From: Sphingobacteriia bacterium
Lineage (GTDB): Bacteria > Bacteroidota > Bacteroidia > Chitinophagales > Chitinophagaceae
Assembly: GCA_037129425.1 (NCBI GenBank)
Contig: JBAXUV010000010.1
Location: forward strand, 25,810-89,809
Length of the DNA: 64,000 bases
Reading direction: 5' to 3'
In this document: positions 1 through 61,839 of the stretch, piece by piece
Layout: every line of letters begins with the position of its first letter
Numbering within the stretch: the first letter of the stretch is position 1
Translations under genes and position numbers: made by a program
The notes under the pieces: model-generated
The model's input: only the letters and a program-made list of their open reading frames with translations
Databases searched by the model: none
Told to the model about the DNA's origin: nothing

Positions 1-2990
1 GCTCCTGCTCCAGAAGCTGTCATCAATGGAACAACGCCTAAAATAAATGCAAAGCTGGTCATTAGAATTGGTCTGAAACGAAGCCTTGCTCCTTCTATAG
101 CTGCTTCTAATGGAGCCAACCCTTCTTTATCCATTTTCATTTTAGCAAATTCAACAATTAAAATTGCATTCTTTGCATTCAGGCCAATTAACATCACTAA
201 TCCAATTTGTGCAAACACATTGTTCACATAAGTTGTTGCATATAATCCTCCTATGAACAATCCCAGTAATGCTCCCATTACAGCCCAAGGTGTTCCCAAC
301 AAAACACTGAATGGAAGTTTCCAGCTTTCGTACTGTGCGGCTAAAATTAAAAACACAAATAATAAGGCCATTGCAAAAACAGTGGCACCTTTTCCTGCGG
401 ATTCTTTTTCCTGATAAGATGTATTACTCCATGAATAACCAATATCAGGTGGCAATACTTTTTTAGCAACACCCTCCAGTACACGAAGTGCCATATCTGA
501 ACTTACGCCAGGTGCAGGCACACCATTCAATTCTGCTGATCGATAAATATTAAAGTGATTGGTAAATGACGGGCCTGTTGTATCCACTACTTTAGCCAAT
601 GTACCTAAGGAAACCATATCTCCAGCTGCATCTCTAACAAAATATTGATTGATATCATCTGGCTTCATTCTAAACTCCGCTTCACTTTGCATATATGCAC
701 GATACTGTCTACCAAACGCGTTAAAATTATTGATAAATGCACCTCCTAAATAGGCAGATATTGCTCCATTCACTTCCTGTAACGGAATACCTAATTTTTG
801 CACTTTATCTTTATCCACTTGAATAGATTTTTGAGGAACGATCGGACGGAATAGTGTATATATTTTTCCTATTTCGGGGCGTTTATTACAAATAGCAATA
901 AAGCGTTGTGTTTGTTGTGCAAGATATAATGGAGATTTTCCTGTTTTGTCTTGCAACATCATGGTGAATCCTGCACCAGATCCAAGACCTTGAATTGGAG
1001 GAGGACCAAATACAATCACCGTTGCATCGGTGATATTTTTAGTGAGCACCACATTCATTTCTGCAATAATATCAGCTACTGTTTTATGTCTTTCATCCCA
1101 AGGTTTTAAACTTATAAAAGCCATTGCTGAATTGGGAGTAGCTGTACCAGACAAAATATTAAATCCATTAATAGCTGTATAGGTATTGATCTCTTCCATT
1201 CCGCTAAAATAGCTTTCCACTTTTTTAGCAACTGCTTCTGTTCTTTCTTTAGAAGCAGCATCAGGTAATTGAATGGCCAACATAAAATACCCTTCATCTT
1301 CTTCAGGCACAAATCCACCAGGCACTTTTAATGCAAGAACAACAGTAAGTACAACTATACCTACTAATATCATTACGGTCATGAATAATTTTCTAGCAGC
1401 GAATCCAGCAACTTTTACATAGCCTAATGTGAACTTATCAAAATAATAGTTGAAGCCATTAAAGAATCTTTGCAACAATCCTTTGCTTTCTTTTTTTGGT
1501 TTCAATAAAATAGCTGCTAAAGCAGGGCTTAGTGTTAATGCATTGAATGCCGATAATGCAACAGAGATGGCAATGGTAATTGCAAACTGTTGATACAATC
1601 TTCCGGTGATTCCACCAGACAATGCTACAGGAATAAATACAGCACAAAGAATCACTGCAATTGCCACCACTGGCCCTCCTACTTCTTTCATTGCTTTTTT
1701 CGTTGCAGCTTTCGGATCCAGTCCATGTTCCATTTCATGTATCACTGCTTCAACTACAACAATGGCATCATCAACCACCAAACCAATGGCGAGTACCATT
1801 CCTAAAAGAGACAATTGGTTTACAGAGAATCCTAAAATAGGGAACACAATAAATGTTCCTATCAAAGAAACAGGAACAGTTAATAATGGAATCAATGTTG
1901 CGCGCCAATCTTGTAAGAAAAGGAACACCACTAATATAACTAAGAGTACTGCTTCTAGTAAAGTATGCAATACTTCTTCAATTCCTACAGTGATTGCTTG
2001 AGTAGTATCTAAACTTGTTGTATAATCTATACCAATTGGAAATCTGGTTTTCAATTCCTCCATTTTTGCCTTTGCTTTGTTAGCAACATCCAAACCATTT
2101 GATCCTGGAATTTGATAAATAGCAATCGCTGCACAAGGGCTTCCATTTAAGTTAGAACTCAGAGAATACATTTGCAAACCCAATTCTATTCTTGCAACAT
2201 CTTTTAGTCTTACCTGTGCACCATTAGCAGAAGTCTTTAAAAGAATATTTCCAAAATCTTCTTCGGAAACCAAACGTTGTTGTAAAGTAGCTGTATACGT
2301 ATTTTGAACACCATTTTTTGCAGGAGCGTCACCAAAAGAACCACCCGGAACAATATTGTTCTGTGCTTTAATGGCATTCATCACATCGGATGCAGTGATT
2401 TTTAGCTTTGCCAATCTATCTGGCTTCACCCAAATTCGCATTGCATATTCCGAACTACCCATTACAGTAACATCACCAATTCCTTTTATCCTTTTTAGTT
2501 CATCAATAAGATTAATGAACGCATAGTTATTAATGAAGTTGGCATCATAAGATTTAGTTGGTGAATAAACCGAAAACATCATCAATGGAAAAGTCAATGA
2601 TTTCTTTACGTTTACTCCTAAATTAATTACTTCTGGAGGAAGGAATGGATTAGCTCTTGATACGCGGTTTTGTGTTAGCATATTTGCCACATCCAAATCG
2701 GTTCCCACTTCAAAGGAAACCTGCAGCGTCATCGATCCGTTGTAATTCACCGACTTCATGTACAACATGTTCTCTACACCATTCACCTGTTGTTCAATGG
2801 GTGTAGCAACAGTTTGTTCCATATCCACTGCATTTGCTCCAGTATAAGTTGCAGAAATTTGCACCATTGGAGGCGTGATATCAGGATATTTGGCAACTGG
2901 AATTCCTTGTAATGTTAATAAACCCATTATCACAATGAAAATGGAAATCACCATTGCAACTATCGGTCTTCGTATAAAAAACTCACTCAT
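1..2990 (-). CDS. RND efflux pump inner-membrane permease (AcrB/HAE1 family), 3' end off the window
   Basis: Absent from the ORF track because no stop lies in the window. My reverse-strand read from the ATG at 2990-2988 gives MSEFFIRRPIVAMVISIFIVIMGLLTLQGIPVAKYPD, the canonical AcrB N-terminus. The same frame is still open at the left edge (...MTSFAFILGVVPLMTASGAGA). Spot-checked only, not translated end to end. Confidence 0.85.
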   Translation of the reverse strand, partial: MSEFFIRRPIVAMVISIFIVIMGLLTLQGIPVAKYPDITPPMVQISATYTGANAVDMEQTVATPIEQQVNGVENMLYMKSVNYNGSMTLQVSFEVGTDLDVANMLTQNRVSRANPFLPPEVINLGVNVKKSLTFPLMMFSVYSPTKSYDANFINNYAFINLIDELKRIKGIGDVTVMGSSEYAMRIWVKPDRLAKLKITASDVMNAIKAQNNIVPGGSFGDAPAKNGVQNTYTATLQQRLVSEEDFGNILLKTSANGAQVRLKDVARIELGLQMYSLSSNLNGSPCAAIAIYQIPGSNGLDVANKAKAKMEELKTRFPIGIDYTTSLDTTQAITVGIEEVLHTLLEAVLLVILVVFLFLQDWRATLIPLLTVPVSLIGTFIVFPILGFSVNQLSLLGMVLAIGLVVDDAIVVVEAVIHEMEHGLDPKAATKKAMKEVGGPVVAIAVILCAVFIPVALSGGITGRLYQQFAITIAISVALSAFNALTLSPALAAILLKPKKESKGLLQRFFNGFNYYFDKFTLGYVKVAGFAARKLFMTVMILVGIVVLTVVLALKVPGGFVPEEDEGYFMLAIQLPDAASKERTEAVAKKVESYFSGMEEINTYTAINGFNILSGTATPNSAMAFISLKPWDERHKTVADIIAEMNVVLTKNITDATVIVFGPPPIQGLGSGAGFTMMLQDKTGKSPLYLAQQTQRFIAICNKRPEIGKIYTLFRPIVPQKSIQVDKDKVQKLGIPLQEVNGAISAYLGGAFINNFNAFGRQYRAYMQSEAEFRMKPDDINQYFVRDAAGDMVSLGTLAKVVDTTGPSFTNHFNIYRSAELNGVPAPGVSSDMALRVLEGVAKKVLPPDIGYSWSNTSYQEKESAGKGATVFAMALLFVFLILAAQYESWKLPFSVLLGTPWAVMGALLGLFIGGLYATTYVNNVFAQIGLVMLIGLNAKNAILIVEFAKMKMDKEGLAPLEAAIEGARLRFRPILMTSFAFILGVVPLMTASGAG

Positions 2991-3014
2991 AAAAAGAGGT
3001 TCAAAAAATGATGA

Positions 3015-4172
3015 TTATTGTTGGGATGTGGAATCATAATTCCATGGAATCATTGTCGGCTTAACTGGCATTGAAGGCTTCACAGCAGCATTACCTATAA
3101 TGGCTAATTTGTCTCCTACTTTAACTCCTTCGTTAATAATCCAGTTACTGCCAATTCTTTTACCAGGTTTTACCACAACTGGATTCACTTTGTTGCTGTC
3201 ATTCAATACAAATACTTGGAATAAATTTTGAAACTGAATAACTGTCTGTTGAGGAACCAACAAAGCGTCCTTAAATTCATCTGTCTTTAATTTCAGCTTA
3301 ACATATTGTCCTGGCTTAATTAAACCTTGAGGGTTATCGAATATCGCTTGTAATAGCAAGGAACCTGTAGCAGGGTCAATCTGACGATTGGTTAAATTAA
3401 TATACCCTAGTTGATTGTATTTGGTTCCATCACTTAAAATCATTTCAACAGGCACATTTGCTTCAAATAACTTAGCAGAACTATTCGCTTTCATTTTTGC
3501 GAATTTGAGGTACTCATCTTCACTGATTGAAAATCTTGCTCTGATTGAATTGACTGATGAGATTACATTGAGCGGAGCTCCCGTATTTAATTTACCGATA
3601 AAATCTCCGACCCAATATTTGGATGTACCAATTATTCCTGTGATAGGTGCAGTAATACTAGCGTAACTCAATTCAATTTTAGCATTGCGCAATGCAGCTT
3701 GCGCGGCATCTACCTGGCTTAACGAAGCTTGGTAATTGGCTTTAGCTGCATCCAAATCCCTTTGACTTAGTGCATGCATTTGAGTAAGTGGTTCTACCCG
3801 ATCCAATTCTGCTTTATTCCTTACTTTACCAGTATTAGCTTGTGCTAAATTCGCTTCTGCCTGATCAATTTTATTTTTGATTGGTAAATCATCAATGGTA
3901 TATAATAATTGTCCTTTTTGAACCAATTCACCTTCTTTGAAATGGATAGAAGTAATCCAGCCTTCAATACGAGATTGAATTTGAATATCTTCTTTACCAA
4001 AAGTCTCCCCTACATATTCTGTGTAAAAAGGAACGGTTTTTTTACCAACTTCCACCACATTCACTTCAGGAATTAATGCGGCTGCATCTGCTTTTTTTTC
4101 TTTACAAGACTGTACCGAAATAAAACAAGCACTTAAAGCTAAATAGCTCCATAAGCCAATTTTCATATTCAT
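3015..4172 (-). CDS. RND efflux periplasmic adaptor (MFP, AcrA-like) lipoprotein
   Basis: 385 aa with a lipoprotein-type signal (..SACFISVQSC). It has a lipoyl-like motif (GELVQKGQLLYTID) and a coiled-coil hairpin region, and ends 24 nt upstream of the AcrB-like gene. Confidence 0.85.
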   Translation of the reverse strand: MNMKIGLWSYLALSACFISVQSCKEKKADAAALIPEVNVVEVGKKTVPFYTEYVGETFGKEDIQIQSRIEGWITSIHFKEGELVQKGQLLYTIDDLPIKNKIDQAEANLAQANTGKVRNKAELDRVEPLTQMHALSQRDLDAAKANYQASLSQVDAAQAALRNAKIELSYASITAPITGIIGTSKYWVGDFIGKLNTGAPLNVISSVNSIRARFSISEDEYLKFAKMKANSSAKLFEANVPVEMILSDGTKYNQLGYINLTNRQIDPATGSLLLQAIFDNPQGLIKPGQYVKLKLKTDEFKDALLVPQQTVIQFQNLFQVFVLNDSNKVNPVVVKPGKRIGSNWIINEGVKVGDKLAIIGNAAVKPSMPVKPTMIPWNYDSTSQQ

Positions 4173-4219
4173 TGCTTTTGTTGGCTCTAAATATAGTAAT
4201 TATTAAATTAATATATGTA

Positions 4220-4648
4220 TTAAGATTGTATGTAATTCTGAAGCTGTGAAATGGTTTCCTGCTGGTTCAAAATGGTTTCTGTTACCACATCATTGATGGA
4301 AATAATTCCAGCTAAATGTCCCTGATCAATTACTGGCAGATAACGTATATGTTTTGAAGACATCAATTGCATACACTTTTCTACGGTATCATTTAAGGAT
4401 ACAGGCGGAAAATCGCTGGTCATGATCTCACTGACTGGCGTTTCACTTGAATGCCTTCCCATTAAAATGACTTTTCGGGAATAGTCACGCTCTGTAAGAA
4501 TACCTGCAAATTGATCGTTTTTTAGGATCACTAAAGACCCAATATTTTTTTCTGACATTATTTGCAAAGCTTGAATCACAGTAGTGTCTGGACTTACACT
4601 TACCACCTGATTGCCTTTTCTGGAGAGTATATGACTTACTTTTCGCAT
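4220..4648 (-). CDS. CBS-domain pair protein
   Basis: 142 aa with two CBS-like repeats (IGSLVILKNDQFAGILTERD and IRYLPVIDQGHLAGIISINDV). Confidence 0.8.
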   Translation of the reverse strand: MRKVSHILSRKGNQVVSVSPDTTVIQALQIMSEKNIGSLVILKNDQFAGILTERDYSRKVILMGRHSSETPVSEIMTSDFPPVSLNDTVEKCMQLMSSKHIRYLPVIDQGHLAGIISINDVVTETILNQQETISQLQNYIQS

Positions 4649-4723
4649 AAAGCAAATTTTAAACCTAATTTACCAAAATAATATGAATTCTGTACATTTA
4701 TTCCTAATCCTAATAAAATTTAC

Positions 4724-5791
4724 ATGGAACCCAATCATTCCAATTCAACCATTTCATCAAGAAATATCATTGAAATTGTTGTCCGATTAATTGCCCTGAT
4801 TCTTCTGTTTGGCTGGTGTTTCAAAATCATAGAGCCTTTTATCACTCCTATTTTGTGGGGCTGTATCCTAGCAGTGGCTATTTATCCTGCTTATCATCAA
4901 CTAAAAAAAATATTGAAAGGGAGGCAAAATCTCGCTGCAATCATTCTTACTTTGATGCTCCTATTGGTTGTCATTATTCCTGCTGCTTTTTTAAGTGTAA
5001 AAATGGCGGATGAAGTACAGTTACTAACTTCGGCCTATAACAAACACGAACTTAATTTACCAGTAGTTCCAGAAAAAGTAAAATCATGGCCATTTATAGG
5101 ATCAAAATTGCACACTATTTGGAGCGATGCCAATTCCAATATTGAATTGGTCTTTCAAAAGAACCCCGAAATAACTACTAAAATAATTAATGTTTCGCTT
5201 GATATAATTGCAAGTGCAGGCAAGGGCGTTTTTGTTTTCCTATTCTCTATTATCATCAGTGGAATTTTTTTGGCTTTCACAGATCATGCATCTACATTCT
5301 CAAGAAAATTGTTTCATCGATTAATGGGTCCTATTAAATCAGATATGACAAGTATTGCCGCATCAACTATAAGGAGTGTAGTGAAAGGCGTGTTTGGTGT
5401 AACGATTATTCAAACCAGCTTAGCCGCAATTGGTTTTTTTACTGCAGGAATTCCTGCAGCGGGATTACTTACACTGTTTTGTTTTATTCTTGGAATAACC
5501 CAGATTGGCATGTTACCTGTAACACTTGGCGTTATCATTTATGCTTGGACTTCTTTAAGCAGTTTCACTGCTGTAGCATTGACCATCTGGATGCTTTTAG
5601 TGGGTCTTTCTGATAATATCATCAAACCCTGGCTACTTTCTAAAGGGTCTGTTGTGCCTATGCCTATTTTGTTAATTGGATCTTTAGGTGGGTTCATCTT
5701 TTCTGGATTTATAGGTCTATTTACTGGTGCTGTAATTTTTGCATTAGGTTATAAGTTGTTTATTGCATGGGTAGAAGGAGAAGAGATTTAA
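4724..5791 (+). CDS. AI-2E family (UPF0118, PerM/YhhT-like) membrane transporter
   Basis: 355 aa with multiple hydrophobic helices. Overall layout and the C-terminal GxxGxxxG-rich helices are typical of AI-2E permeases. Confidence 0.75.
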   Translation: MEPNHSNSTISSRNIIEIVVRLIALILLFGWCFKIIEPFITPILWGCILAVAIYPAYHQLKKILKGRQNLAAIILTLMLLLVVIIPAAFLSVKMADEVQLLTSAYNKHELNLPVVPEKVKSWPFIGSKLHTIWSDANSNIELVFQKNPEITTKIINVSLDIIASAGKGVFVFLFSIIISGIFLAFTDHASTFSRKLFHRLMGPIKSDMTSIAASTIRSVVKGVFGVTIIQTSLAAIGFFTAGIPAAGLLTLFCFILGITQIGMLPVTLGVIIYAWTSLSSFTAVALTIWMLLVGLSDNIIKPWLLSKGSVVPMPILLIGSLGGFIFSGFIGLFTGAVIFALGYKLFIAWVEGEEI

Positions 5792-50276: not shown

Positions 50277-52769
50277 ATGCTTAAGAAATTTACGCATTAT
50301 CTAGGGCTAACAATACTTATTCTAGTTTCCACCAATTCAATTGGTCAATACCAATACTTAGGCACTTATGATAATGAGGGAAGACCTAATTATTTATTGC
50401 CAACTAGAGATGTGCTTAGTGCATCATTCTTAAGTAAGATTGCCGCTTCTTTACCGGAGAGCAGACCTGTACCTACTTATAACCCTCGATTAATTGCAGA
50501 TGGTAGAACCGAAACCATTGATGTGAAATGTCCATCGGATGTATGGATCACTTTTGTTGATGAAGGTGCTGGCTATAGAAATGGATTAGGATATTATACT
50601 TTCAATACCGACAATCCTCCTACTACACCACCTGCTGCAAATCAAATCAAAATTATTTTCCCCAATGCATCTAAAAGTGGAGCTGGTGGCGGATTAACTG
50701 CAGGTGATAAAGTATTCTTAGGTAATTTTCCTGCAAAAACAGGTATTGGATTTGTATTGATGGCTGATGGTTGGAATGGTTCAATTGTTACTCCAGGAAA
50801 CTGGGTATTATACTCTACTTCAGCTTTTAATCCAGAACCAATTGTTTCCAATAAAAAACATACTGTTTTACTAAGAGATTCTAGTACCAATAGAATTGTT
50901 GTTGGTTTTGAAGATATTAGAAGAGATAACAATAGCTGTGATAATGATTTTAATGATTTGATATTTTATACTACAGTTACACCAATTGAATGCGTCAACA
51001 AAATGGATAGCATTCCCGATTTAACACTTGATGGAAAAATTTCATTCTCAGGAAATACTGGTGGACTAGAAAGTAAAAGCCTGGGAGACAAAATTGCTAA
51101 AAGAATTTATGGAAAATTATTAGAAGGCAGCAACGGTGAAGTGAATTATCAAAATATGCAATTGCTCGAAACATCTTCTAGGATGGTCACTAGCAATGCA
51201 ACTTCTTCTGCTACTGGCTTGAAATTGGCAGACTTAATGCCATCTCGCATATTAGATCCAGGATACACAGCATACATCACTACTCCAACAGATATACCAT
51301 CTATTACAAACGCTAAAGAAGTAAGGTCTGTTGACTTTACAAAAGATGGCATATGTAAAGCAGTGGCTTTTGCAACCAAAACACAGGGTGTAATGTATGA
51401 TCACACTAAGCCAATGTGTGATCGATTAAAAGGAGCAGAATTATTGAACGTAGAGAATTTTTCTTTAAACAGTTTAAATTTTGTCAGATACACATTAAAA
51501 CAGTCTACTGGAAATATTGAATATGCAATGAGTTTTTCAATAGGTAAAAAAACTGGAAGGAATAATTTCTCATTTCAATCTAACTGGTTGAATAAGGATT
51601 ATGTAAGTGAAGACACATTAATTAACTACCAGGTTTGGGCAGCAGCTCCGTATTTATGCATTGATATGGCTTTAGAAATTTTAAGCAAATTGAATGCTAT
51701 AATGCCTGTTCAGCAGTTTGTGGCATCAGCAGAATTACCTAAAACATATATTACCAGTGGAAGTCGTAACGGAACCAATTTAAATTTAACCATCAATAAT
51801 CAAAGCATCTTTAGTAGTGGATATTTTGAAGTTGAAGAGAAAGCCAATGAAAGAGCTACTATAAAAACAAAAAGAACAGTTCCGTTTAATTTAAATGCAT
51901 TCAATAAATCAACTATCAGTTTCCCAATGAGTGATGTTTTTGAGAGCAATGTTTCGATGTATATCAACGGTAAATTACAGGATCAGGTTTATATGAGTGA
52001 TGGCACCTGGGGTATTGATTATGACTCTACTAAAACAGTAGTAAAAGAGTTTAACATAATAAATGATACTGCAAAAGGTTTTGCTGCAGGAGACTATCCT
52101 GTATTCAGAAATGTCAAAATCAATGCAACAACAACTAATTATGTTACCGCTTACAAAGTCTTAAAGGGAGCAGGTGTGGCCGTAGATTTGAGTGAATATA
52201 AAACATTGGTATTAACAGCTAAAGGAGATGCAAGACTAAAAATTACATTGGCCAAAAACTCCATTAACGATTTTGAAAAACAATTTAAATACAGCACCAC
52301 TGTAGGAAAAGAATTCAAAGAGTACAGAATAGATTTGAGTAGTTTCAAATCAACGAATTCAACCACAGGTTTTGTTGCAAACGATATTGTTACTGTTGTA
52401 TTTGCTTTTGAAACTTTTGACGGAAGATCAACTACAATTGATGCTGCCATCAATAATATTGCATTCTCTAAAAAAGCGCCTGAAGAACCTGCTGCTGCCA
52501 TCAATACATCTATCAATGTATTTCCTAATCCAGCAAAAGGTGGAAAATTCACCGCCAAATTCAACAGTGAAGTAAATACTACCGCAACCATTAAAGTAAC
52601 AGATGCAACAAGCGGTAGAGTGTTGTTCACCAAAGATGCCAATGTAGTGAAAGGGGAAAATCAGGTTCCGGTTCAAATGACCAATTTACCAGGAATATCT
52701 ATCAGCATTCTAACCATTGAGGGAAATGGCATCAAGCTTCAGCCACAGAAAATATATGTTCAGCAATAA
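50277..52769 (+). CDS. T9SS cargo protein: DUF4114-like head + conserved ~570-aa module + T9SS CTD
   Basis: 830 aa with a signal peptide. A DUF4114-like block (GAGYRNGLGYYTF ... GFEDIRRDNNSCDNDFNDLIFY) spans about 50514-50982. C-terminal CTD: VFPNPAKGGKFTAKF...ILTIEGNG. Confidence 0.85.
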   Translation: MLKKFTHYLGLTILILVSTNSIGQYQYLGTYDNEGRPNYLLPTRDVLSASFLSKIAASLPESRPVPTYNPRLIADGRTETIDVKCPSDVWITFVDEGAGYRNGLGYYTFNTDNPPTTPPAANQIKIIFPNASKSGAGGGLTAGDKVFLGNFPAKTGIGFVLMADGWNGSIVTPGNWVLYSTSAFNPEPIVSNKKHTVLLRDSSTNRIVVGFEDIRRDNNSCDNDFNDLIFYTTVTPIECVNKMDSIPDLTLDGKISFSGNTGGLESKSLGDKIAKRIYGKLLEGSNGEVNYQNMQLLETSSRMVTSNATSSATGLKLADLMPSRILDPGYTAYITTPTDIPSITNAKEVRSVDFTKDGICKAVAFATKTQGVMYDHTKPMCDRLKGAELLNVENFSLNSLNFVRYTLKQSTGNIEYAMSFSIGKKTGRNNFSFQSNWLNKDYVSEDTLINYQVWAAAPYLCIDMALEILSKLNAIMPVQQFVASAELPKTYITSGSRNGTNLNLTINNQSIFSSGYFEVEEKANERATIKTKRTVPFNLNAFNKSTISFPMSDVFESNVSMYINGKLQDQVYMSDGTWGIDYDSTKTVVKEFNIINDTAKGFAAGDYPVFRNVKINATTTNYVTAYKVLKGAGVAVDLSEYKTLVLTAKGDARLKITLAKNSINDFEKQFKYSTTVGKEFKEYRIDLSSFKSTNSTTGFVANDIVTVVFAFETFDGRSTTIDAAINNIAFSKKAPEEPAAAINTSINVFPNPAKGGKFTAKFNSEVNTTATIKVTDATSGRVLFTKDANVVKGENQVPVQMTNLPGISISILTIEGNGIKLQPQKIYVQQ
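51060..52769 (+). repeat. paralogous protein module, copy 1 (GGLESKSLGD ... T9SS CTD)
   Basis: By eye it aligns over its full length with 60121-61839, roughly half the residues identical. An example block is [16 protein letters not shown]....QSNWLNKDY. Confidence 0.8.
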
Positions 52770-52792: not shown

Positions 52793-52818
52793 AGCCTCCA
52801 GCAATGGGGGCTTTTTTA
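52793..52818 (+). terminator. intrinsic terminator after the 830-aa gene
   Basis: Stem agcctcc (52793-52799) with gggggct (52806-52812, one G-U pair), followed by a T6 run. Confidence 0.55.
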
Positions 52819-53454
52819 TACATTAAATTCAATCATGAATTTTACCAAAGCAGCAGGAGAATTTAATTGTAATTTATGCATGATATTTTTACGATGTGTT
52901 TCAACCGTATAAATACTCAAGTGTAGCTTTTCTGCTATTTGTTGATTGGTATAAGTTTGCTTTAAGTAATAAACAATTTCTAATTCCCTCTTTGTGAGGT
53001 TGAATTTGTGCAAGAAAGTATCTAATTTTTTGAAAGCATCTGGCAGGTTTTCTTCTTTCCCCAAAATAAATACAGACTCACCTGCTGCTACTTTTTTAAT
53101 GGCACCAGATAACTCATCTTTGCTACTATTCTTTAGTATATATCCGTCAGCACCAGCTTTTTTAGCTTGTTCAATTAGTTTTGCATCATTGTAGGCAGAT
53201 AGCATTAGTACCCTAACAGTAACAAAGGATTGTTTGATGTATTTGATGGTGTCTAAGCCATTTAAGTTGGGCATATTCACATCTAATAAAATCAAATCGA
53301 TATCAGGTTGTTGAGTAAGTAAGTAAAGTAACTGCTTACCATCATTAGCAATGCCTGCAATATTAATTGCTGGATCATTTCCCAATATCATCTTTAGACC
53401 TTCCACAAAAAGTGGATGATCGTCCGCAATCATTAAGTTAATTTTCTCGCTCAT
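52816..53454 (-). CDS. NarL/LuxR-family response regulator (REC + HTH)
   Basis: 212 aa. Receiver motifs are ADDHPLF, DLILLDVNMP (phospho-Asp context) and LSAY. C-terminal LuxR HTH: LTKRELEIVYYLKQTYTNQQIAEKLHLSIYTVETHRKNIMHKL. Confidence 0.9.
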   Translation of the reverse strand: MSEKINLMIADDHPLFVEGLKMILGNDPAINIAGIANDGKQLLYLLTQQPDIDLILLDVNMPNLNGLDTIKYIKQSFVTVRVLMLSAYNDAKLIEQAKKAGADGYILKNSSKDELSGAIKKVAAGESVFILGKEENLPDAFKKLDTFLHKFNLTKRELEIVYYLKQTYTNQQIAEKLHLSIYTVETHRKNIMHKLQLNSPAALVKFMIEFNV

Positions 53455-53473
53455 AAATAAAATTCAATATACA

Positions 53474-55261
53474 TCATTTTTTGAAAGGAACAAACATTGG
53501 TCCTGCAAAACAAGGGTAAGACTTAATTTTATAGATCCCGCCCTCATAATAGGTTTCAGCCCAACAATATTTGGAACCAGGAGTATCGTCATTCTTCATT
53601 TGAGGAACATACCAAAGTACCAGATCTGTATTAACAATTTGCTCTGGATTAGGTTCAATGAATTTTTCGGGGCCCTGTCTGTAATCGCTATTGCAACATG
53701 GACCAATCGTTACCAAATCAGTTTCTCCTTCATTTTTATCTAAATGGTTTTTTGTAATGTATAAATATGCATTATCTCCCCTACCACTGTCATTAAACTG
53801 ACCCTTGCCTGGCTCTATATAAAATCCATTGTTGGCACTTGTTTGGAGTTGATACTGAAAACCCTTGGGCGAATAAGCAGTAGTTGGTTGTTGTAGCTGC
53901 CATTTTTCTTTTTCCCAAATATTCCAATCATTATTGCCCCATTCATAAAAGGATTGTTTATTCCCTGCAAATGAAATACGCATCACAGGCCGGTAAATTC
54001 CATTGTTTCCACATCCCCTACCTAAGCTAGCACAAACCATTCTGAACTGTCCATTTTTGTAAAAGAAAAAACGCTGGGAATAACTATAATTGCAGGCAAT
54101 GGGCCATAATTCACTGAAGAATCGCTGCTCGAGCATAAAACCAACTGTACTGTCTCCTTCAATAATATCAGCTATAATAGGCGGATCTGTTGCTACAACA
54201 GCCGATTGACTAAAGATTGGACAACCAACTGCATCACTGTATCCAAACCCATCCGTACCGGAATAACTTACATGCCAATCTACCAATTTAGCACTATTGA
54301 TTATTTTGTTTGAATTGAAACTGACATTACTGATCATGAGTCCATCAGAGGCTGTTAAAACATAATCAACAGACCAGTTATTTTTTTTAACGGTGTTGAT
54401 TTTTTCGCAGTAACAATCAGCCATATTTTCATTCTGTAATTTTCTTTCTGTAACCACTAAGTTTTCTGCATCCTTTCCAACATTGGTCCAACGTAACCCT
54501 ACCAGTCGATTTTCTGTAAGGTCTACAATTGCCCATAGTGCTCTATTGCCTTTTACAAAAGTTGGTGCAACGCATAAATGCTGAGACCTTTCACATTTTG
54601 TTCGGTTCAATGCTGTTTTGGTACTCGACATGATGGGCATATCTGCTGAAGGCTTAAACCCGAGTGCCTTCTCTACTTCAGGAGAATTAACCGCAATTTT
54701 TACAGCCAATTTGGTAAGTCTCGAAGGAATATCTGGTTGCATTTGAGGATAATGATCTACACTGATCATTTTATGCGTAATAATATTGACCACACCAATC
54801 GTTGTTAAATTCAACGCATAATTATACATTTCAATACGCAATAATGAACCTGGTAAATTCACTACTCCTTTTCTGATATCACCAGGTCTTGCAGGATAGA
54901 CTCCAAATATTTCGTTCCATAATGGTTGATGCGTTTTTCTATCAAAAATATATTTGGTAAAAAAACTGTCTTGCAAAGCAATATTTTGAGCCAACATGGT
55001 CCTTTCATCAGTTTTATCGGAATAGTATTTTACGGGAATATCATCATGCAATATGGAGTCGATTTGTTTTTTTCTTTGAACAATAAAACTGGCAGTATCT
55101 GGTTTTTTGGTCGAAAATAAAGATTCCTTGAACTCGCTCAAATATATAGCATCATTGGTTTTGGCGGCTTTTGAGCTGGCTTTTTTTTGTTGTGCATTTA
55201 AGCCAAGTGAGCTCATTAATAACACCAATATGATACAAGAATTTTTTATTTGTACAATCAT
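53474..55261 (-). CDS. exported copper-amine-oxidase-like protein lacking the copper His triad
   Basis: 595 aa with signal peptide ..LLMSSLGLNAQ. By-eye alignment to the CuAO catalytic domain: CNYSYSQRFFFYKNGQFRMVCASLG vs AGAO [25 protein letters not shown]. Also TDLVLWYVPQMKN vs QDIVVWHTFGLTH, and an N3-like ..NRALWAIVDLTENRLVGL. There is no H-x-H anywhere in the protein. Confidence 0.6.
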   Translation of the reverse strand: MIVQIKNSCIILVLLMSSLGLNAQQKKASSKAAKTNDAIYLSEFKESLFSTKKPDTASFIVQRKKQIDSILHDDIPVKYYSDKTDERTMLAQNIALQDSFFTKYIFDRKTHQPLWNEIFGVYPARPGDIRKGVVNLPGSLLRIEMYNYALNLTTIGVVNIITHKMISVDHYPQMQPDIPSRLTKLAVKIAVNSPEVEKALGFKPSADMPIMSSTKTALNRTKCERSQHLCVAPTFVKGNRALWAIVDLTENRLVGLRWTNVGKDAENLVVTERKLQNENMADCYCEKINTVKKNNWSVDYVLTASDGLMISNVSFNSNKIINSAKLVDWHVSYSGTDGFGYSDAVGCPIFSQSAVVATDPPIIADIIEGDSTVGFMLEQRFFSELWPIACNYSYSQRFFFYKNGQFRMVCASLGRGCGNNGIYRPVMRISFAGNKQSFYEWGNNDWNIWEKEKWQLQQPTTAYSPKGFQYQLQTSANNGFYIEPGKGQFNDSGRGDNAYLYITKNHLDKNEGETDLVTIGPCCNSDYRQGPEKFIEPNPEQIVNTDLVLWYVPQMKNDDTPGSKYCWAETYYEGGIYKIKSYPCFAGPMFVPFKK

Positions 55262-55263
55262 TC

Positions 55264-56322
55264 TTATTTATTGAAAGGATTCATGAATTGTTTATTTCTT
55301 AAATAGCTTGTATCGGTTAAAGCAGCCAAAAACTCAATTAATTCTATTTGCTCTTTCTCTGATAAACTAAAACCATTTATTAAAGCAGATTTATTTTTAT
55401 TGCTTCTCCCATCGCCTTTATTTTCTTTGGCTTCAATTAATCTACCTCCTCTTTTATAAATATAAATCATTTGCTGGATTGTTTCAACAGAGCCATCATG
55501 CGCATAAGGTGCTGTAATGAGTACGTTCCTTAATGAGGGCACTCTAAACTTTCCTCTATCGTTGGTGTTTTTGGTAATTTCGTACAAGCCTTGATCTGAG
55601 GCTGGGTAAGACCCAAGATCATCCAAATTGTATAACCCAGTATTTTCGTACAATAATTGTTGTTGAGCAACATTCAAGGAATGACATTTAAAACATCCTA
55701 ACTTTTCCGAATTAAATAGCGCCAGCCCATTGATCGCTTTTTCATTCATCGCTTTTTTATTCCCCTTTAAATATTGATCATAAGGGCTATTCTGAGATTG
55801 TATTTGATTTTCAAAAGCAGCAATTGCTTCCTGGAAAAAAACGGTTGAAAAAGGATTTTTTTCCTTTGGAAATGCCTTATTGAAAAGGGTTTGGTAAAAA
55901 GGATCCGATTTAAAGCGATTAATAATCTCTATTTCATTATTGGTCCAACCCAGTTCTTTTGGGTGTTCATTAAATAGGGGGAAAACCATTTGTTGTGCAA
56001 ACGTATGTATAGAACTATCTCCCCATGTAAGGGCTTTTAAATATTTGGCATTTAAAATGGAAGGGGCATTCCTGCGTAGATTTTCTCCATCAGCTCCAAC
56101 AGATTTTCTATACCCATCTGAAAATGCAAATTGAGGGTCATGACAAGAGGCACATGACTTTGTTTGATTGTAAGACAATTTATTATCAAAAAATAAATGC
56201 CTGCCTAAATTGATTTTGGAATCTGAAGAATTATTAATCGGAGAAGAAAACAATTGATCAATAAAGAAGGAAGAAAAAATAATCAGCACTAAAAAAAATA
56301 ATATGCGCCATTGCTTTTTCAT
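55264..56322 (-). CDS. di-haem cytochrome c peroxidase / MauG family enzyme
   Basis: 352 aa with an N-terminal anchor/signal. CASCH is encoded at 56140-56154 and CFKCH at 55681-55695. FRVPSLRNVLITAPYAHDGS is the family signature. Confidence 0.9.
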   Translation of the reverse strand: MKKQWRILFFLVLIIFSSFFIDQLFSSPINNSSDSKINLGRHLFFDNKLSYNQTKSCASCHDPQFAFSDGYRKSVGADGENLRRNAPSILNAKYLKALTWGDSSIHTFAQQMVFPLFNEHPKELGWTNNEIEIINRFKSDPFYQTLFNKAFPKEKNPFSTVFFQEAIAAFENQIQSQNSPYDQYLKGNKKAMNEKAINGLALFNSEKLGCFKCHSLNVAQQQLLYENTGLYNLDDLGSYPASDQGLYEITKNTNDRGKFRVPSLRNVLITAPYAHDGSVETIQQMIYIYKRGGRLIEAKENKGDGRSNKNKSALINGFSLSEKEQIELIEFLAALTDTSYLRNKQFMNPFNK

Positions 56323-56326
56323 AGCC

Positions 56327-57319
56327 TTATTTGAAGTCGATCAAGTCCCAGTTTTTTGATGCAGTATTCCACTTAAAAGTATATTGTGTTTCTGGTTTTT
56401 CACTTGAAGCTTGTAAGTTATAATTAAATGCAACACCACTAATAATTAAAGCTCCATCTACCATTTTTATTTTTCTAGCTTTATCATCACCTCTAGGCCC
56501 AAACCCTTCGAGGCTAAGCTCTTTACGCAATTTAGACTTTACTAATTGGCCTTGAGCATTGATTGGAATAGAAATAATATTTCCGTTTCTTGCACTTCCT
56601 ATATACAATCGTTTTTGTTTATTTTCATCGAAGGCCACATTAAGACCAATTGCATCTTTTTTTGAAAAAGAATCTATGATTTTTTGGGTGTTTGGATTGA
56701 TCAAAAAAATGATTCCTTTTTCTTGATAACGATCAGAACCAGCTACAGTAGAAGCAATCAAAATATTAGCAGTGCAATCGTATGTGATGCCCAATAAACC
56801 AAAAGGATTTTGAGAAGATGCTTTTGAATTAACTGGGAGATTTAACCATTCACTCAATACACCTGTATACTGATCCAATCGATAGATTGTATTTAATTTA
56901 TCTATTGGATTATACAACATGGAAATTAAAGGAGTTGGAATGGTATACGCATTGCCATTGATATCAAAAGCAATGGAAGAAAGATAGCCGAATGATTTCC
57001 AAGAAGGAGCCTGATACAATGATTTTTTGGGATTGGTTGGAGAAGGTGATTTTTGGCCTTCTAGCTTTTCAAATTCAATTAATGCGATTCCAGTGTACTT
57101 TTTTTCACTGGTACTCAAAGCAGTCCACAATGGATCAAATCCTAAAGTTTTGATGAAGTCTGGTTCTTTTTGGCAGGGCTTAATGGCAGTTTGGGCTACC
57201 AAGTTGTTGGGTATTATGAAAAAACACAAAAAATTAATACTGACACTTGCAAATAAATTAACATATGTTCGAAGTCTTGACAACTTTTTATATGAAATTT
57301 TATTTGAATATATATTCAT
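56327..57319 (-). CDS. hypothetical exported protein, beta-propeller-like repeats
   Basis: The track ORF starts at a TTG (57340); an ATG lies at 57319. It has a hydrophobic anchor (LFASVSINFLCFFIIPNNLVAQ). Repeated short beta-strand blocks (e.g. ANILIASTVAG, KGIIFLINP, RLYIGSARNGNIISIP, GALIISGVAF) suggest a propeller or NHL-like fold. Confidence 0.6.
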   Translation of the reverse strand: MNIYSNKISYKKLSRLRTYVNLFASVSINFLCFFIIPNNLVAQTAIKPCQKEPDFIKTLGFDPLWTALSTSEKKYTGIALIEFEKLEGQKSPSPTNPKKSLYQAPSWKSFGYLSSIAFDINGNAYTIPTPLISMLYNPIDKLNTIYRLDQYTGVLSEWLNLPVNSKASSQNPFGLLGITYDCTANILIASTVAGSDRYQEKGIIFLINPNTQKIIDSFSKKDAIGLNVAFDENKQKRLYIGSARNGNIISIPINAQGQLVKSKLRKELSLEGFGPRGDDKARKIKMVDGALIISGVAFNYNLQASSEKPETQYTFKWNTASKNWDLIDFK

Positions 57320-57564
57320 TTGCTTTATAATGTGAAACAAGTAAATTTAAAATAAATATTGAAACCCATAGGTAAAAATACTTGAATTTAGCTAAAAGGC
57401 TCCAATTAAACATACAATTTAGTTTGTATATGTATAGCTCTGAAAGGATTCTACAATATGGAATTCCAGATTCTATCAAATGGAAAACAGTAAATTTTAC
57501 AATAAAAATGTGTAATTTTACGTCGGATGTAGAAGATAAACTACAAGAAATGTTTTTTTGTTTA

Positions 57565-57576
57565 CACAATATTGTG
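57565..57576. promoter_or_regulatory. perfect 12-bp palindrome CACAATATTGTG in the divergent control region
   Basis: It lies 58-69 nt upstream of the ATG at 57634 and about 245 nt upstream of the operon start. Confidence 0.3.
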
Positions 57577-57633
57577 GAAAAAAAACGTTCCCGTGAGTTT
57601 TTACGCACATGGTTTTATTTTAAATGTACTGTT

Positions 57634-60600
57634 ATGAAAAAAATTTACTCAACTATTTTTAATGCAAAAAAATCATTTGGCATTTCCATTGCCTTATGTG
57701 TTTTTGCTTTAAGTTCTTTAAACCTTTCTGCTCAAGTGAGTGGAAATGTATTTAGAGATTATAATGCTACCGGAATAAAAGAATCAGGTAGCGGTTACAA
57801 TGAACCTAACGTTCCAGGTATTACTGTTAAAGCATATAATGCTGCAGGAACAGTCCTTGCCACCACTACAACTGGCGCTAATGGAAATTATAGTTTTACA
57901 GCTGGTCAAATTCCAGCAGCAACTAAAGTTCGTTTAGAATTTACTGGTTGGATGTCAGAAGACTATCCTGGAGCTTATGGTACCGATAATAAAACAAGTG
58001 TTCAATTTGTTACAGCTCCAAATAACACTGCCAATTTTGCGATTAATTATCCTGGAGATTATGTGGACGCACCTAATGCAAGAATTATTGTTCCATCGTA
58101 TACCAATGGTAATAACCAAATTCCTGGTGCTTGGCCAGCAGCATCCGGTGCAGATAATACCTACGCTTTTAATTATGGAAGTGGTGCAGCCGCTAATATA
58201 ATTAGTGATATGGGACAAATTGGATCTGTTTGGGCTACAGCATATAGTAGAAAAGCAGACAAATTATTCTATGCAGCTTTTGTAAAAAGACATGTATCGC
58301 TAGGACCTCTTGGCATGAATGGAATCTATGTTACTACAGGAGCTAAAGCAATAACTACCAAGACCAACACTGGTAACTTCGTTAATCTAAATGCGATCAA
58401 TCCAGCATTTGATGCAGGTTCTTTACCTGGTAGATCTTTTTCTCCTGGTAACCAATTTAGAAATCAGGCCAATAGGGATGATATGACTGGTGGCAATGTG
58501 TTTGACGAAGTAGGTAAAAAAGGTATTGGCGGAATGACTATTTCAGATGATGGAAGATATTTGTATATCATCAATTTGAATGATCGCAAATTATGGAGAG
58601 TAGATATTGGTGTTAATGGAACTGCTCCCACTTTAGCTTCTCAAATTGTAGCATATAATGCATTTCCTGTAGTGGCTGGAAACAGCACATTCAGACCATT
58701 TGCAGTTAAATTTTATAGAGGAGCTATTTATGTTGGTGGTGTATTAGATGGAGTAAAACCTGATAACTCTTCGGTGAATAGAAGTGAATTGAAAGCGGTT
58801 GTATTAAAAGTGAGTGCTACTGTAACACCAGGCTCAGAAACTTTTACAACTGTATTGGATGCTCCACTTACTTATCAGCGTAGGGCAAATATAAATACTG
58901 GATTTGGAGTAAATAAAAATACCAATTATACTGATCCTAATGGAACGATTGCTGCTGCCACACTATGCCAAGGTTCATGGCATCCATGGGCTAGAAATTT
59001 TTCTGAAGTAGTTATTCCTCCAGGATCTGATAAAATTATTTACCCTCAACCTATGTTGAGCTCTTTGGATTTTGACCCTGCAGATGGATCAATGATATTG
59101 GGAATCACTGATAGAACTGGTCATCAGGCTGGAAACCAAAATTTAGGACCAACTAGTATCGGAAATAATACTTTGTATACTTCTAATTCCGCTGGTGATA
59201 TCTTGAAAGCAGCCAACAATGGTACTTATTCCAGTTTTACATTAGAAAGTAATGGAACAAATGGAGCTTATACTACAAGCGGTGCTGGTAACAATGAAGG
59301 ACCTGGTGGTGGTGAGTTTTTCTATACAGATCGTTATGAAAATGGAGTAGGTGGTGCTTTGGGAATTGGAAATACAGCCAATGGATCTAACCCAGGTACT
59401 TCTCATGAAGAAACCAGTACTGGTAGTATTGCTATGTTCCCAGGTAAAGAATTAATAGCCACTGCATTTGACCCGATTGATAACTGGTTTACAGGTGGTG
59501 TTCGCTATTATTCTTCTACAGATGGTATTGCTAAAGATGGTAAAGTATTGTACTTAGGTGCAAGTGTAGAATATTTTGGTAAAGCAAATGGTTTAGGTGA
59601 TTTAGAAATTATTTCTGCACCAGCACCAATTGAAATCGGTAACCGTGTTTGGTTCGATGCAAATGCCAATGGTGTTCAGGATGCCGATGAAAATGGAATT
59701 GCTGGTGTTACTGTTCAATTAACTTCTAATACTCCTCCATATAGTCCATCTTTATATACAGTTATTGCAACTGCAGTTACTGATGCGAATGGAAATTATA
59801 TTTTCTCTTCGGATGCAAGTAAAACTTCAACTGGTTCAGAGAAATATGGTATTGCTCAGTTCACAGACCCTATCAATAATTTTAGGGTTCAAATACCAAA
59901 CCTTCCTGGAAGCACAACTGTTCAAGCTCCATTGGTTGGATATGATGTTACCTTAAAAGATAATGGAGGTGCCGATGCTAACGCAGATGAAAGAGACAAT
60001 GATGCCAATGCTTGGAATGAATTTGGTACTAATAATATTGCGGTAATTTATTTCACTACAGGCGGAATTGCTGGTGCTAACAACCATAGCTACGATTTTG
60101 GATTTGCAACAGCAGGTTCAGTTGGTGGTGGTGGAGGTGGTGGTGTTGAAAGCAAGAGCTTAGGCGACGCAATTGCCCTTCGTGTATATAACAAAGCAAT
60201 CAACAGTATTGCAGAAAAGGCAGATTATAGCAAAATGCCTTCGGCAGAAAGAACAGGAAATATTGTTAGCAATGCAACTGGAACTCAGTTGAAATTAACT
60301 GATATTTTACCTCGTCAATTAGCCAACTATAATTTTAAATCTTTTGTATCAACACCTAAAGATTTAATTGGTATTACCAATGCAAAAGATGTATTATCAA
60401 TTGACTTTGTAAACGAGAATACACCAAAAGCGGTTGCATTTGGTACACAAACTCAAGGTGAAGTATATGATCATACCAAGGCAATTTGTGATCGTTTGAA
60501 AGGATATGAATTGGTAGGAATGCAAAATGTTACAGTTAAAGGGATCAACATGGTTCAATATAACCTAAGAAACAATGATGGTAATATTGAATATGCAATG

Positions 60601-61839
60601 AGCTTTATCATAGGCGCCAAAACAGGAAGAAATAGTTATACCATTCAATCAAATTGGTTGAATAAAGATTATACTGTTGATGAAACCATGTACAATATTC
60701 AACTTTGGGGTGGTTCTCCTGTTCTTGCTACAGATATGGCAGCTGATATCATTACTCGCTTAACTGCTGGTTTACCAGTGAATGAAATCAAAAGCAATGC
60801 TGGTTTACCAAAAACATATATTACTGCTGGTAAACGTGTAGAAGACAACCTTTCATTGACTATTAATAATGTTACTTCTGCAACTAGTGGCTATTTTGAA
60901 GTATCAGATAGAGCAACTGAAAACACTACTGTATATACGAAGCGTACTGTTCCATTTACAGTAAATGGTAATGGCAAAACAACTATAGCTCTCCCAACCG
61001 GAGACTTATATGAGTCTACCATCAAATTGTATATGAATGGAGTTATTCAAGATGAAGTATTCATGGCTGATGGATCTTGGGGTGTTGATTATAATACCAA
61101 TACAACAAGTGTTAAGAAATTTGAAGTAAAGAATAGTACAGCACAATTAGCAAAAGATGAATTCCATCTTTTCAGAAATGTAGATGTGAATGCAACTACA
61201 CCTGACTTAATTGGAGTATACAAATTATTAAGAGGTGGTGGAGCTCCACAAGATTTAAGTGCATTCAAAACATTGAAAATTACTGCAGCTGGTAATTCAG
61301 TATTAACAGTTACTTTGGTAAAACAATCTATTACCAATTGGGCTGATCAATATACTTATCAGTTCTCAGTGAATAAGGATGCAACTGATTTCTTAATCCC
61401 ATTGACCGACTTTAAATCTTCAGGATCTAATAAACCAATTGATCCAAAAGATATCACCACTATGATTGTTGCATTAGGAACTACTTCTGCAGGAAAAAAT
61501 GCCAATGTTGAAGTTTCATTAAGCAATGTTTCATTTACTAAAGAAGATATAGGCTATATCAGAAGTTTATCTGCAAAAGATGTTACTGCATATCCTAATC
61601 CATCTAAAGGAACATTTAACCTTAAGTTTAAAGCAGATAAAGATTATGCGCTTACTTTAAAAGTTACAGAAGCTGGAACAGGCAATGTAATAATGAGTCA
61701 AGCAATAAATGCTACAAAAGGTGAAAACTCTGTACCGGTGAATTTAAACATCAACAAAGGTCAAAAAATGTACATCATTAGTCTTGATGGAAGCAATGTA
61801 AAATACAAAGCGACCAAATTGGTAATGGGTAAGGATTAA
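57634..61839 (+). CDS. T9SS cargo protein: SdrD-B-like repeats + large central domain + conserved ~570-aa module + T9SS CTD
   Basis: The track ORF starts at 57382, but the ATG at 57634 gives a signal peptide ([34 protein letters not shown]). SdrD B-like blocks: [20 protein letters not shown] and [41 protein letters not shown]: [14 protein letters not shown]... Confidence 0.85.
60121..61839 (+). repeat. paralogous protein module, copy 2 (Gly7 linker, [10 protein letters not shown] ... T9SS CTD)
   Basis: Collinear with 51060-52769 and in the same orientation. Confidence 0.8.

Follow-up and report, generated by a model that had tools for sequence, protein, structure and literature searches.

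A copper-free relative of copper amine oxidases encoded with an MbnH-family di-haem enzyme and a β-propeller: a candidate system for cofactor maturation in trans

We analysed a 64,000-nucleotide stretch of DNA from a Sphingobacteriia bacterium of the Chitinophagaceae (contig JBAXUV010000010.1, positions 25,810 to 89,809; hereafter the window, G+C about 35%), in which a tight run of minus-strand genes encodes a 595-residue protein of copper amine oxidase (CuAO) fold, a 352-residue di-haem c-type enzyme of the MauG/MbnH type and a 337-residue β-propeller protein. Comparison of related loci shows that this trio forms a conserved three-protein module that, judging from gene spacing and amino-terminal sequences, is co-transcribed and extracytoplasmic. 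The CuAO-like protein keeps the quinone pocket of its relatives and has lost their copper site, and we tentatively propose that the di-haem enzyme matures it in trans into a copper-independent quinoprotein working with the propeller; on residue mapping and on analogy with known systems, we give this reading a little less than an even chance. Maturation of this kind had been suggested in an earlier reading of the same DNA (the original prediction), and the idea, with its predicted modification, passes the computational tests that we ran.

Routine searches of the 595-residue protein scarcely register its ancestry. Its Pfam match to PF01179 is partial (residues 289-337) and below threshold, at 21.9 bits where 27 are required, yet the same model touches 68/68 aligned family members (best E 6.7e-08) with no other Pfam family matched, whereas the N2 and N3 domain models PF02727 and PF02728 match none of those 68; the Pfam check of the CuAO assignment thus came out divided, with PF01179 touched under its gathering threshold and the other two models silent. 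Neither the single sequence nor a family profile found a match among PDB sequences. An AlphaFold2 model of moderate quality (predicted local distance difference test, pLDDT, 74.9) returned CuAOs as all of its top 50 Foldseek matches, the best being 1oac (E 4.5e-18, probability 1.0), at about 12% identity to CuAOs and with a global TM-score of only 0.33, because of which the domain packing in the model is unreliable. A first hhalign comparison against a narrow enterobacterial TynA profile covered 26 columns at 1.7% probability, laying CNYSY on GNYDY. Broadened profiles (140 family members, distant ones included, against 13 CuAOs from Proteobacteria, Actinobacteria and Archaea) gave 98.9% probability and E 1.1e-17 over 490 columns, with query residues 56-593 aligned to TynA 88-741. 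This establishes homology across the N-terminal and catalytic domains, and by these profile comparisons the protein is a genuine, very remote CuAO homologue, as the original prediction had read it. The family is large: clustering gives more than 1500 groups at 90% identity and 274 at 50%, and members occur in 304 species-level genomes.

Mapping the alignment onto TynA (whose precursor numbering is the mature, or ECAO, numbering plus 30) locates both what has been kept and what has been lost. CNYSY aligns with TynA G-N-Y496-D-Y in each of two hhalign runs, bearing out its earlier recognition as the cofactor-tyrosine motif and placing Tyr392 on the residue that becomes topaquinone (TPQ); Tyr333 falls on a second pocket position (Table 1). 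Over the 140 sequences, which reach down to about 30% identity, Tyr392, Tyr333, Asp343 and Tyr423 are 99% conserved, and Tyr394 and Cys390 98%. None of the copper ligands ECAO H524, H526 and H689 is retained, in agreement with the loss first suspected: no His stands at any of the three positions, the Asn557 column holds N or T family-wide and never His, and conserved His residues are limited to His228 and His330. The 595-residue protein itself has 7 His in total, with none in residues 331-505 and none after 506. Strong purifying selection thus acts on the quinone pocket, and the family as a whole has lost the copper site. Ten Cys are more than 90% conserved over the same sequences (C223, C230, C285, C347, C390, C417, C522, C523, C566 and C584). 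C522 and C523 form a vicinal Cys-Cys pair within GPCCN, Cys390 stands two residues ahead of Tyr392 and an eleventh Cys, C283, is found only in the close clade. Vicinal disulfides are rare; one stacks on pyrroloquinoline quinone in methanol dehydrogenase.

The 352-residue protein matches CCP_MauG (PF03150, 2.5e-44) and narrowly passes the NCBIfam model of the MbnH family (TIGR04039, 377.6 against a curated cutoff of 362.85), while lying far under that of the MauG equivalog (TIGR03791, 150.7 against 443.85). Among PDB entries it matches 6e1c best ('Di-heme enzyme', 1.1e-75, residues 28-350 aligned), which we take to be MbnH, and it shares 46% identity with a Methylocystis MbnH that is annotated beside an MbnP gene. 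The two CxxCH motifs and the PSLRN...APYAHDGS segment, like CNYSY in the neighbouring protein, are all present in the sequence as originally quoted. We aligned the haem ligands with those of Paracoccus denitrificans MauG (numbering fixed by its haem histidines 35 and 205), the Methylocystis MbnH and a canonical Agrobacterium peroxidase. Tyr289 shares a column with MauG Tyr294, MbnH Tyr317 and the Met330 ligand of the canonical cytochrome c peroxidase (CCP), and Trp100 aligns with the inter-haem Trp93 of MauG. Among 64 operon-linked di-haem homologues both CxxCH motifs are kept in 64/64, Tyr289 in 62/64 and Trp100 in 91%.

The identity of this axial ligand bears directly on function. His-Met ligation is the mark of H2O2-scavenging peroxidases, whereas His-Tyr ligation belongs to MauG-type enzymes (MauG, MbnH and BthA); these attain a bis-Fe(IV) state, their haem potentials are low and they perform poorly as peroxidases (PMC11892367, PMC6405878). 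MauG makes the tryptophan tryptophylquinone (TTQ) of methylamine dehydrogenase (MADH), and MbnH the kynurenine of MbnP (PMC11951088). Family models and ligand alignment together place the 352-residue protein among MbnH-family, MauG-type enzymes and not among scavenging peroxidases. The original assignment to the di-haem CcpA/MauG family therefore stands on the MauG side, as Tyr occupies the position of the Met that gives canonical CcpA its high-potential His-Met haem. Because Tyr replaces that peroxidase ligand, plain removal of H2O2, which had been offered as an alternative, is now disfavoured.

A subtler version of that alternative would make the di-haem protein the electron acceptor, or the local H2O2 consumer, of a CuAO-like oxidase or dehydrogenase, with the propeller as a second catalytic or binding subunit. 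Copper loss would remove the O2-reoxidation route of a CuAO and so call for an external acceptor, a c-type di-haem gene lies 2 nt upstream of the CuAO-like gene in a conserved link, and quinohaemoprotein amine dehydrogenase (QHNDH), whose di-haem α subunit takes electrons from cysteine tryptophylquinone (CTQ), would be a precedent by analogy. The enzyme nevertheless has a CCP/MauG fold and MbnH-family membership; one haem motif is of the five-coordinate, peroxide-binding kind and the other haem of His-Tyr type, and the low potentials and weak peroxidase activity of His-Tyr enzymes suit electron acceptance or scavenging badly (PMC11892367, PMC6405878). This explanation also leaves the formation of a cofactor without copper unaccounted for, and we think it unlikely.

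The third protein is an orphan β-propeller, as the description 'propeller-like' had anticipated. Its AlphaFold2 model is confident (pLDDT 87.6) and matches generic six- and seven-bladed propellers in Foldseek (E about 1e-6, TM-score about 0.45), among them strictosidine synthase, YncE, glucose and aldose dehydrogenases and PON1; the sequence has no Pfam family match and no relative in the PDB. W107 and W324 are invariant. We considered whether it might be a divergent GSDH domain (PF07995), the type found beside distant family members, and rejected this at the level of sequence, there being no PF07995 match and an hhalign probability of 4% against those GSDH neighbours.

Gene neighbourhoods tie the three proteins together. 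Across 80 genome loci the only widely conserved neighbour clusters are the CuAO-like (78), di-haem (69) and propeller (67) proteins, and all three genes occur in 62/80 by hidden Markov model assignment, the remainder being mostly incomplete contigs. When genome and metagenome loci are pooled, 66 carry exactly one of each gene; all 66 are co-directional, the gaps have a median of 3 nt and 117/132 of them measure 50 nt or less, so the close spacing seen in the window is real and not a matter of chance. The order is propeller-dihaem-CuAO in 39 loci, dihaem-CuAO-propeller in 24 and CuAO-propeller-dihaem in 3. Linkage that outlasts rearrangement in this way is good evidence of functional coupling. 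It extends to metagenome loci whose CuAO-like proteins are only 43-53% identical to that of the window (L119, L123, L124 and L125), all of which retain the trio. The three orders, seen among loci L001-L080 and L119-L126, are circular permutations of one cyclic order, and no non-cyclic order occurs.

TPQ is the textbook self-processing cofactor, for which copper and O2 are enough. Because the copper site is lost, this route should be impossible in the 595-residue protein, unlike in canonical CuAOs, and its Tyr392 would be unable to process itself. In our proposal, H2O2 would instead drive the di-haem enzyme to bis-Fe(IV), and long-range hole transfer would then oxidise one residue of its CuAO-like partner into a TPQ-like quinone, with Tyr392 as the most plausible site. 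Once matured, and probably complexed with the propeller, the CuAO-like protein would serve as a quinoprotein dehydrogenase or oxidase that needs no copper and turns over an amine-type substrate, either in the periplasm or on the cell surface, and the regulator encoded beyond the trio in the window would be a lineage-specific add-on. We favour oxidation in trans because copper is absent, a MauG-type enzyme is the neighbour and the list of components resembles both MADH/MauG and QHNDH. The pocket residues retained for a quinone would be Asn391-Tyr392, Tyr333 and the nearby invariant Asp343. To our knowledge, the MauG/MbnH class comprises the only enzymes that build protein-derived cofactors by long-range oxidation.

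Several observations weigh against maturation of Tyr392 by the di-haem enzyme. Within the pocket, hhalign gives the catalytic-base Asp of CuAOs (TynA Asp413, ECAO Asp383) no counterpart, since it is located inside a 12-residue alignment gap. Next to this gap, where the model is unreliable (pLDDT below 50 at residues 342-352), comes an invariant Tyr341-Ser-Asp343, and Asp343 could be the equivalent base. The residue after the cofactor-position Tyr is S, N or R, not the canonical D/E, and the model as a whole is only moderate by both measures given above. MauG and MbnH, moreover, are known for acting on tryptophan and not on tyrosine (PMC11951088), and the target of oxidation could equally be the propeller.

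Gene content raises further difficulties for the same proposal. In four Bacteroidota loci (L058, L064, L068 and L074) the CuAO-like and propeller genes overlap or lie a few bases apart, no di-haem gene adjoins them and unrelated genes occupy its expected place. The most distant branch of the family (30-37% identity), which we surveyed by a metagenome scan seeded with a subset of the alignment, the full set being too diverse, has as its usual neighbour a GSDH-type (PF07995) propeller and mostly no nearby di-haem gene. Tyr392 is kept in 70/72 sequences of this branch, and its conservation therefore does not track adjacency to a di-haem gene. Genomes without an adjacent copy could carry the di-haem gene elsewhere.

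The arrangement in the distant branch is varied. The GSDH-type propeller is convergent and adjacent in L090, L093, L096 and L099; an MbnH-type di-haem gene adjoins the CuAO-like gene in L107, L108 and L113; the GSDH propeller and the di-haem enzyme seldom occur together, and L097 and L098 have neither. In L094 (3119-5932) and P0290 the GSDH-type propeller is fused to the C terminus of the CuAO-like domain, and such fusions are Rosetta-stone-type evidence that this domain works with a propeller. Since the distant branch pairs the CuAO-like protein with a propeller and only sometimes with a di-haem enzyme, these gene arrangements point to CuAO-like protein plus propeller as the oldest and tightest association, with the MauG-type enzyme a frequent partner, recruited or retained independently, and not a universal neighbour. 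The expectation that the trio would be kept as neighbours is borne out in most loci. Distant members often bear C-terminal PKD or Ig-like domains. L098 carries two tandem CuAO-like paralogues (1467-3158 and 3315-5414), and in L097 a Rieske [2Fe-2S] protein and a thioredoxin-like redoxin (1671-2336 and 2431-2778) are encoded directly upstream of the CuAO-like gene.

These findings invite two other explanations. The di-haem enzyme might oxidise a Trp (for example, to kynurenine) or another residue, on the propeller or elsewhere on the CuAO-like protein, to create a metal or redox site, with Tyr392 kept for other reasons. Both characterised reactions of MauG-type enzymes hit Trp (PMC11951088), seven Trp of the CuAO-like family are at least 93% conserved (W243, W296, W329, W386, W446, W550 and W567), the invariant Trp pair of the propeller offers further targets and the permuted gene orders place the di-haem gene beside either partner. 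Several loci pair the CuAO-like protein with a propeller and have no di-haem gene alongside, which counts against such a role, as do the lack of MbnP similarity in either partner and of any obvious conserved His/Met copper-site motif, and the retention of three TPQ-pocket positions is most simply the sign of a quinone-type site. We regard this as unlikely, to the same degree as the redox partnership. Less likely still, in our judgement, is a role for the CuAO-like protein as a degenerate pseudo-enzyme, a mere binding protein or scaffold at the surface, possibly for a neighbouring protein of the type IX secretion system (T9SS), with its Tyr and Cys structural and the di-haem enzyme in a separate oxidative-stress role. 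The lost metal site, the ten conserved Cys (which suggest a disulfide-stabilised extracellular protein), the PKD and Ig-like surface domains on distant members and the large T9SS surface protein that is often a neighbour would all suit a non-catalytic protein. Conservation of about 99% in TPQ-pocket residues at roughly 30% identity would, however, be unusual for a pseudo-enzyme, the genes are strictly tied in operons to those of redox proteins (a MauG-type enzyme, or else GSDH dehydrogenase-type propellers, some of them fused to the CuAO-like domain) and a scavenging peroxidase should carry the Met ligand. The His-Tyr haem and the conserved pocket are fitted less well by a pseudo-enzyme, and also by a redox partnership, than by maturation in trans.

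Set against characterised systems, the trio resembles several and coincides with none. The MauG/pre-methylamine dehydrogenase system likewise has a periplasmic His-Tyr di-haem c-type enzyme with an inter-haem Trp, and here too its gene shares an operon with those of a putative cofactor protein and a propeller. MADH, whose heavy subunit is a seven-bladed propeller, comprises propeller subunit, TTQ subunit and MauG. In contrast to the small TTQ light subunit of that system, the candidate substrate here has a CuAO fold; its candidate site is a Tyr and not a Trp pair, and mau genes are absent from the window and related loci. MbnH and MbnP offer the nearer match for the enzyme, by the family model, sequence identity and PDB match given above, and again the di-haem gene is tightly coupled to a neighbouring exported gene. 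The partners here are instead the 595-residue CuAO-fold protein and the propeller, a methanobactin/TonB-transporter context is missing from the present loci and the hosts are Chitinophagaceae, not methanotrophs. MbnP models were silent on the neighbouring proteins and no MbnP-like gene occurs in related loci; the idea of a disguised MbnP among the partners was discarded, as a real MbnP (from L140) shows no similarity to either.

Canonical CuAOs (E. coli TynA, Arthrobacter AGAO and Hansenula HPAO) share with the 595-residue family the homologous N-terminal and catalytic domains (D2-D4), Asn-Tyr at the TPQ position and the equivalent of Tyr369. They differ from it in possessing the copper His residues and an acidic residue after the Tyr (identity is about 12%), in lacking its ten conserved Cys with the vicinal C522-C523 pair, and in gene context, the family being encoded in an operon with a propeller (67/80 genome loci) and usually also with a MauG-type enzyme. 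QHNDH consists of a di-haem α subunit, a propeller β subunit and a CTQ-bearing γ subunit, and its component list of di-haem c-type protein, propeller and quinone-bearing protein (putative here), all periplasmic, is comparable. Its α subunit is not of the CCP/MauG fold, and γ is a small cross-linked peptide matured by the radical-SAM protein QhpD and the flavoprotein QhpG; the present loci, by contrast, have no such QHNDH genes.

The claim that no described system pairs a CuAO-fold protein with a MauG-type enzyme holds as far as we can see, since we found no description of MbnH or MauG paired with an amine oxidase in the full-text literature, of which our coverage was incomplete. A 2025 review of protein-derived cofactors likewise lists TPQ as autocatalytic only, and MauG and MbnH with their known Trp substrates only. 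What appears new, from these comparisons, is the linkage of a MauG/MbnH-type enzyme to a new class of partner protein, a variation on the theme of a di-haem enzyme with its substrate protein. Whether this amounts to the first copper-independent, enzyme-installed Tyr-derived quinone, in a new family of CuAO-fold plus propeller quinoproteins in Chitinophagaceae and beyond, and so carries MauG chemistry from Trp to Tyr, is in our view less likely than not, though a realistic prospect. A family that has kept the TPQ pocket, lost the copper site and become operon-linked to the MauG-type class nonetheless makes a testable system in which to ask whether a tyrosyl quinone can be made in trans and whether MauG-type enzymes are able to act on tyrosine. 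If maturation in trans is correct, the di-haem family, other members of which (BthA, for example) are still cryptic in function, would gain a third class of substrate besides MADH and MbnP, and more than 1500 unnamed proteins of freshwater and soil Bacteroidota would gain a function. Even with another target or chemistry, the trio would be a redox module of the extracytoplasmic space, not yet characterised and open to direct expression and testing.

Table 1. Features of the operon and its flanks, in window coordinates
Feature	Position	Strand	Remarks
Paralogous flanking protein	50277-52769	+	830 aa; DUF4114 domain
NarL/LuxR-type response regulator	52816-53454	-	212 aa, REC + GerE
Exported CuAO-fold protein without copper site	53474-55261	-	595 aa, member of an unnamed family
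Asn557	53591-53593	-	Third copper-ligand position (TynA His719, mature His689), hhalign
Residues 415-435 (RGCGNNGIYRPVMRISFAGNK)	53957-54019	-	Opposite CuAO H-x-H strand (His554, His556); no His
C390-N-Y392-S-Y394 motif	54080-54094	-	Tyr392 = TPQ tyrosine (TynA Tyr496 / TPQ466), two hhalign runs
Tyr333	54263-54265	-	TynA Tyr399 / ECAO Tyr369, which hydrogen-bonds TPQ O4 (hhalign)
MbnH-family, MauG-type di-haem c-type enzyme	55264-56322	-	352 aa
Tyr289, predicted axial ligand of six-coordinate haem	55456-55458	-	His-Tyr, MauG type (alignment)
PSLRN...APYAHDGS segment of the 352-aa protein	55486-55539	-	Motif present
Haem motif 2, CFKCH (C210-H214)	55681-55695	-	H214 aligns with MauG His205
Haem motif 1, CASCH (C57-H61)	56140-56154	-	H61 aligns with MauG His35
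Exported orphan β-propeller protein	56327-57340	-	337-aa open reading frame from TTG
Divergent large T9SS-sorted surface protein	57382-61839	+	1485 aa; SdrD_B + Por_Secre_tail domains

In the window itself, the open reading frame list confirms the tight run of four minus-strand genes that drew attention to the region, each where it had first been placed, with gaps of 19, 2 and 4 nt from low to high coordinate. Each of the 595-, 352- and 337-residue proteins has a hydrophobic N-terminal segment typical of export, as read from its sequence, consistent with the signal peptides or anchors originally proposed. The longest form of the propeller frame opens with TTG at 57340; because database homologues are about 330 residues long, the true start is likely to be the ATG at 57319, giving 330 residues and making the region first outlined 21 nt shorter. 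A scan for sigma-70 promoters and terminators did no better than on shuffled sequence, the sigma-70 model being ill-suited to Bacteroidota promoters. Sediminibacterium and other Chitinophagaceae genomes are the nearest relatives of the window.

The fourth gene encodes a response regulator (PF00072, 4e-26; PF00196, 2.2e-15), which the original prediction counted as a member of the operon. It follows the trio in 34/80 loci, all of a Sediminibacterium-like clade, and we have therefore removed it from the conserved module; this NarL-type regulator is a lineage-specific addition.

Two plus-strand paralogues of 830 and 1485 residues flank the operon. They have in common a C-terminal module of 564 residues (43% identity, E 9e-154), with a T9SS sorting domain at its end; the former has a DUF4114 domain and the latter an SdrD-B-like domain, beyond which the N-terminal 800 residues of the 1485-residue protein gave no informative family or structure match. 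Homologues of that N-terminal part occur no more than 1.5 kb from the trio in 28/35 loci with enough flank, including the distant genome loci L049, L065, L071 and L078, and metagenome loci L119, L123 and L124 carry one beside the trio. The 1485-residue protein may be a fourth, facultative component of the system, or a substrate. Operon contigs also turn up in oddly labelled metagenome-assembled genomes, namely those of Synechococcus sp. UW140 (L036), an uncultured Bifidobacterium (L064) and Sphingobacterium thalpophilum (L001), with CuAO-like genes 74%, 59% and 96% identical, respectively, to that of the window; these taxon labels are likely to come from mis-binning or mislabelling.

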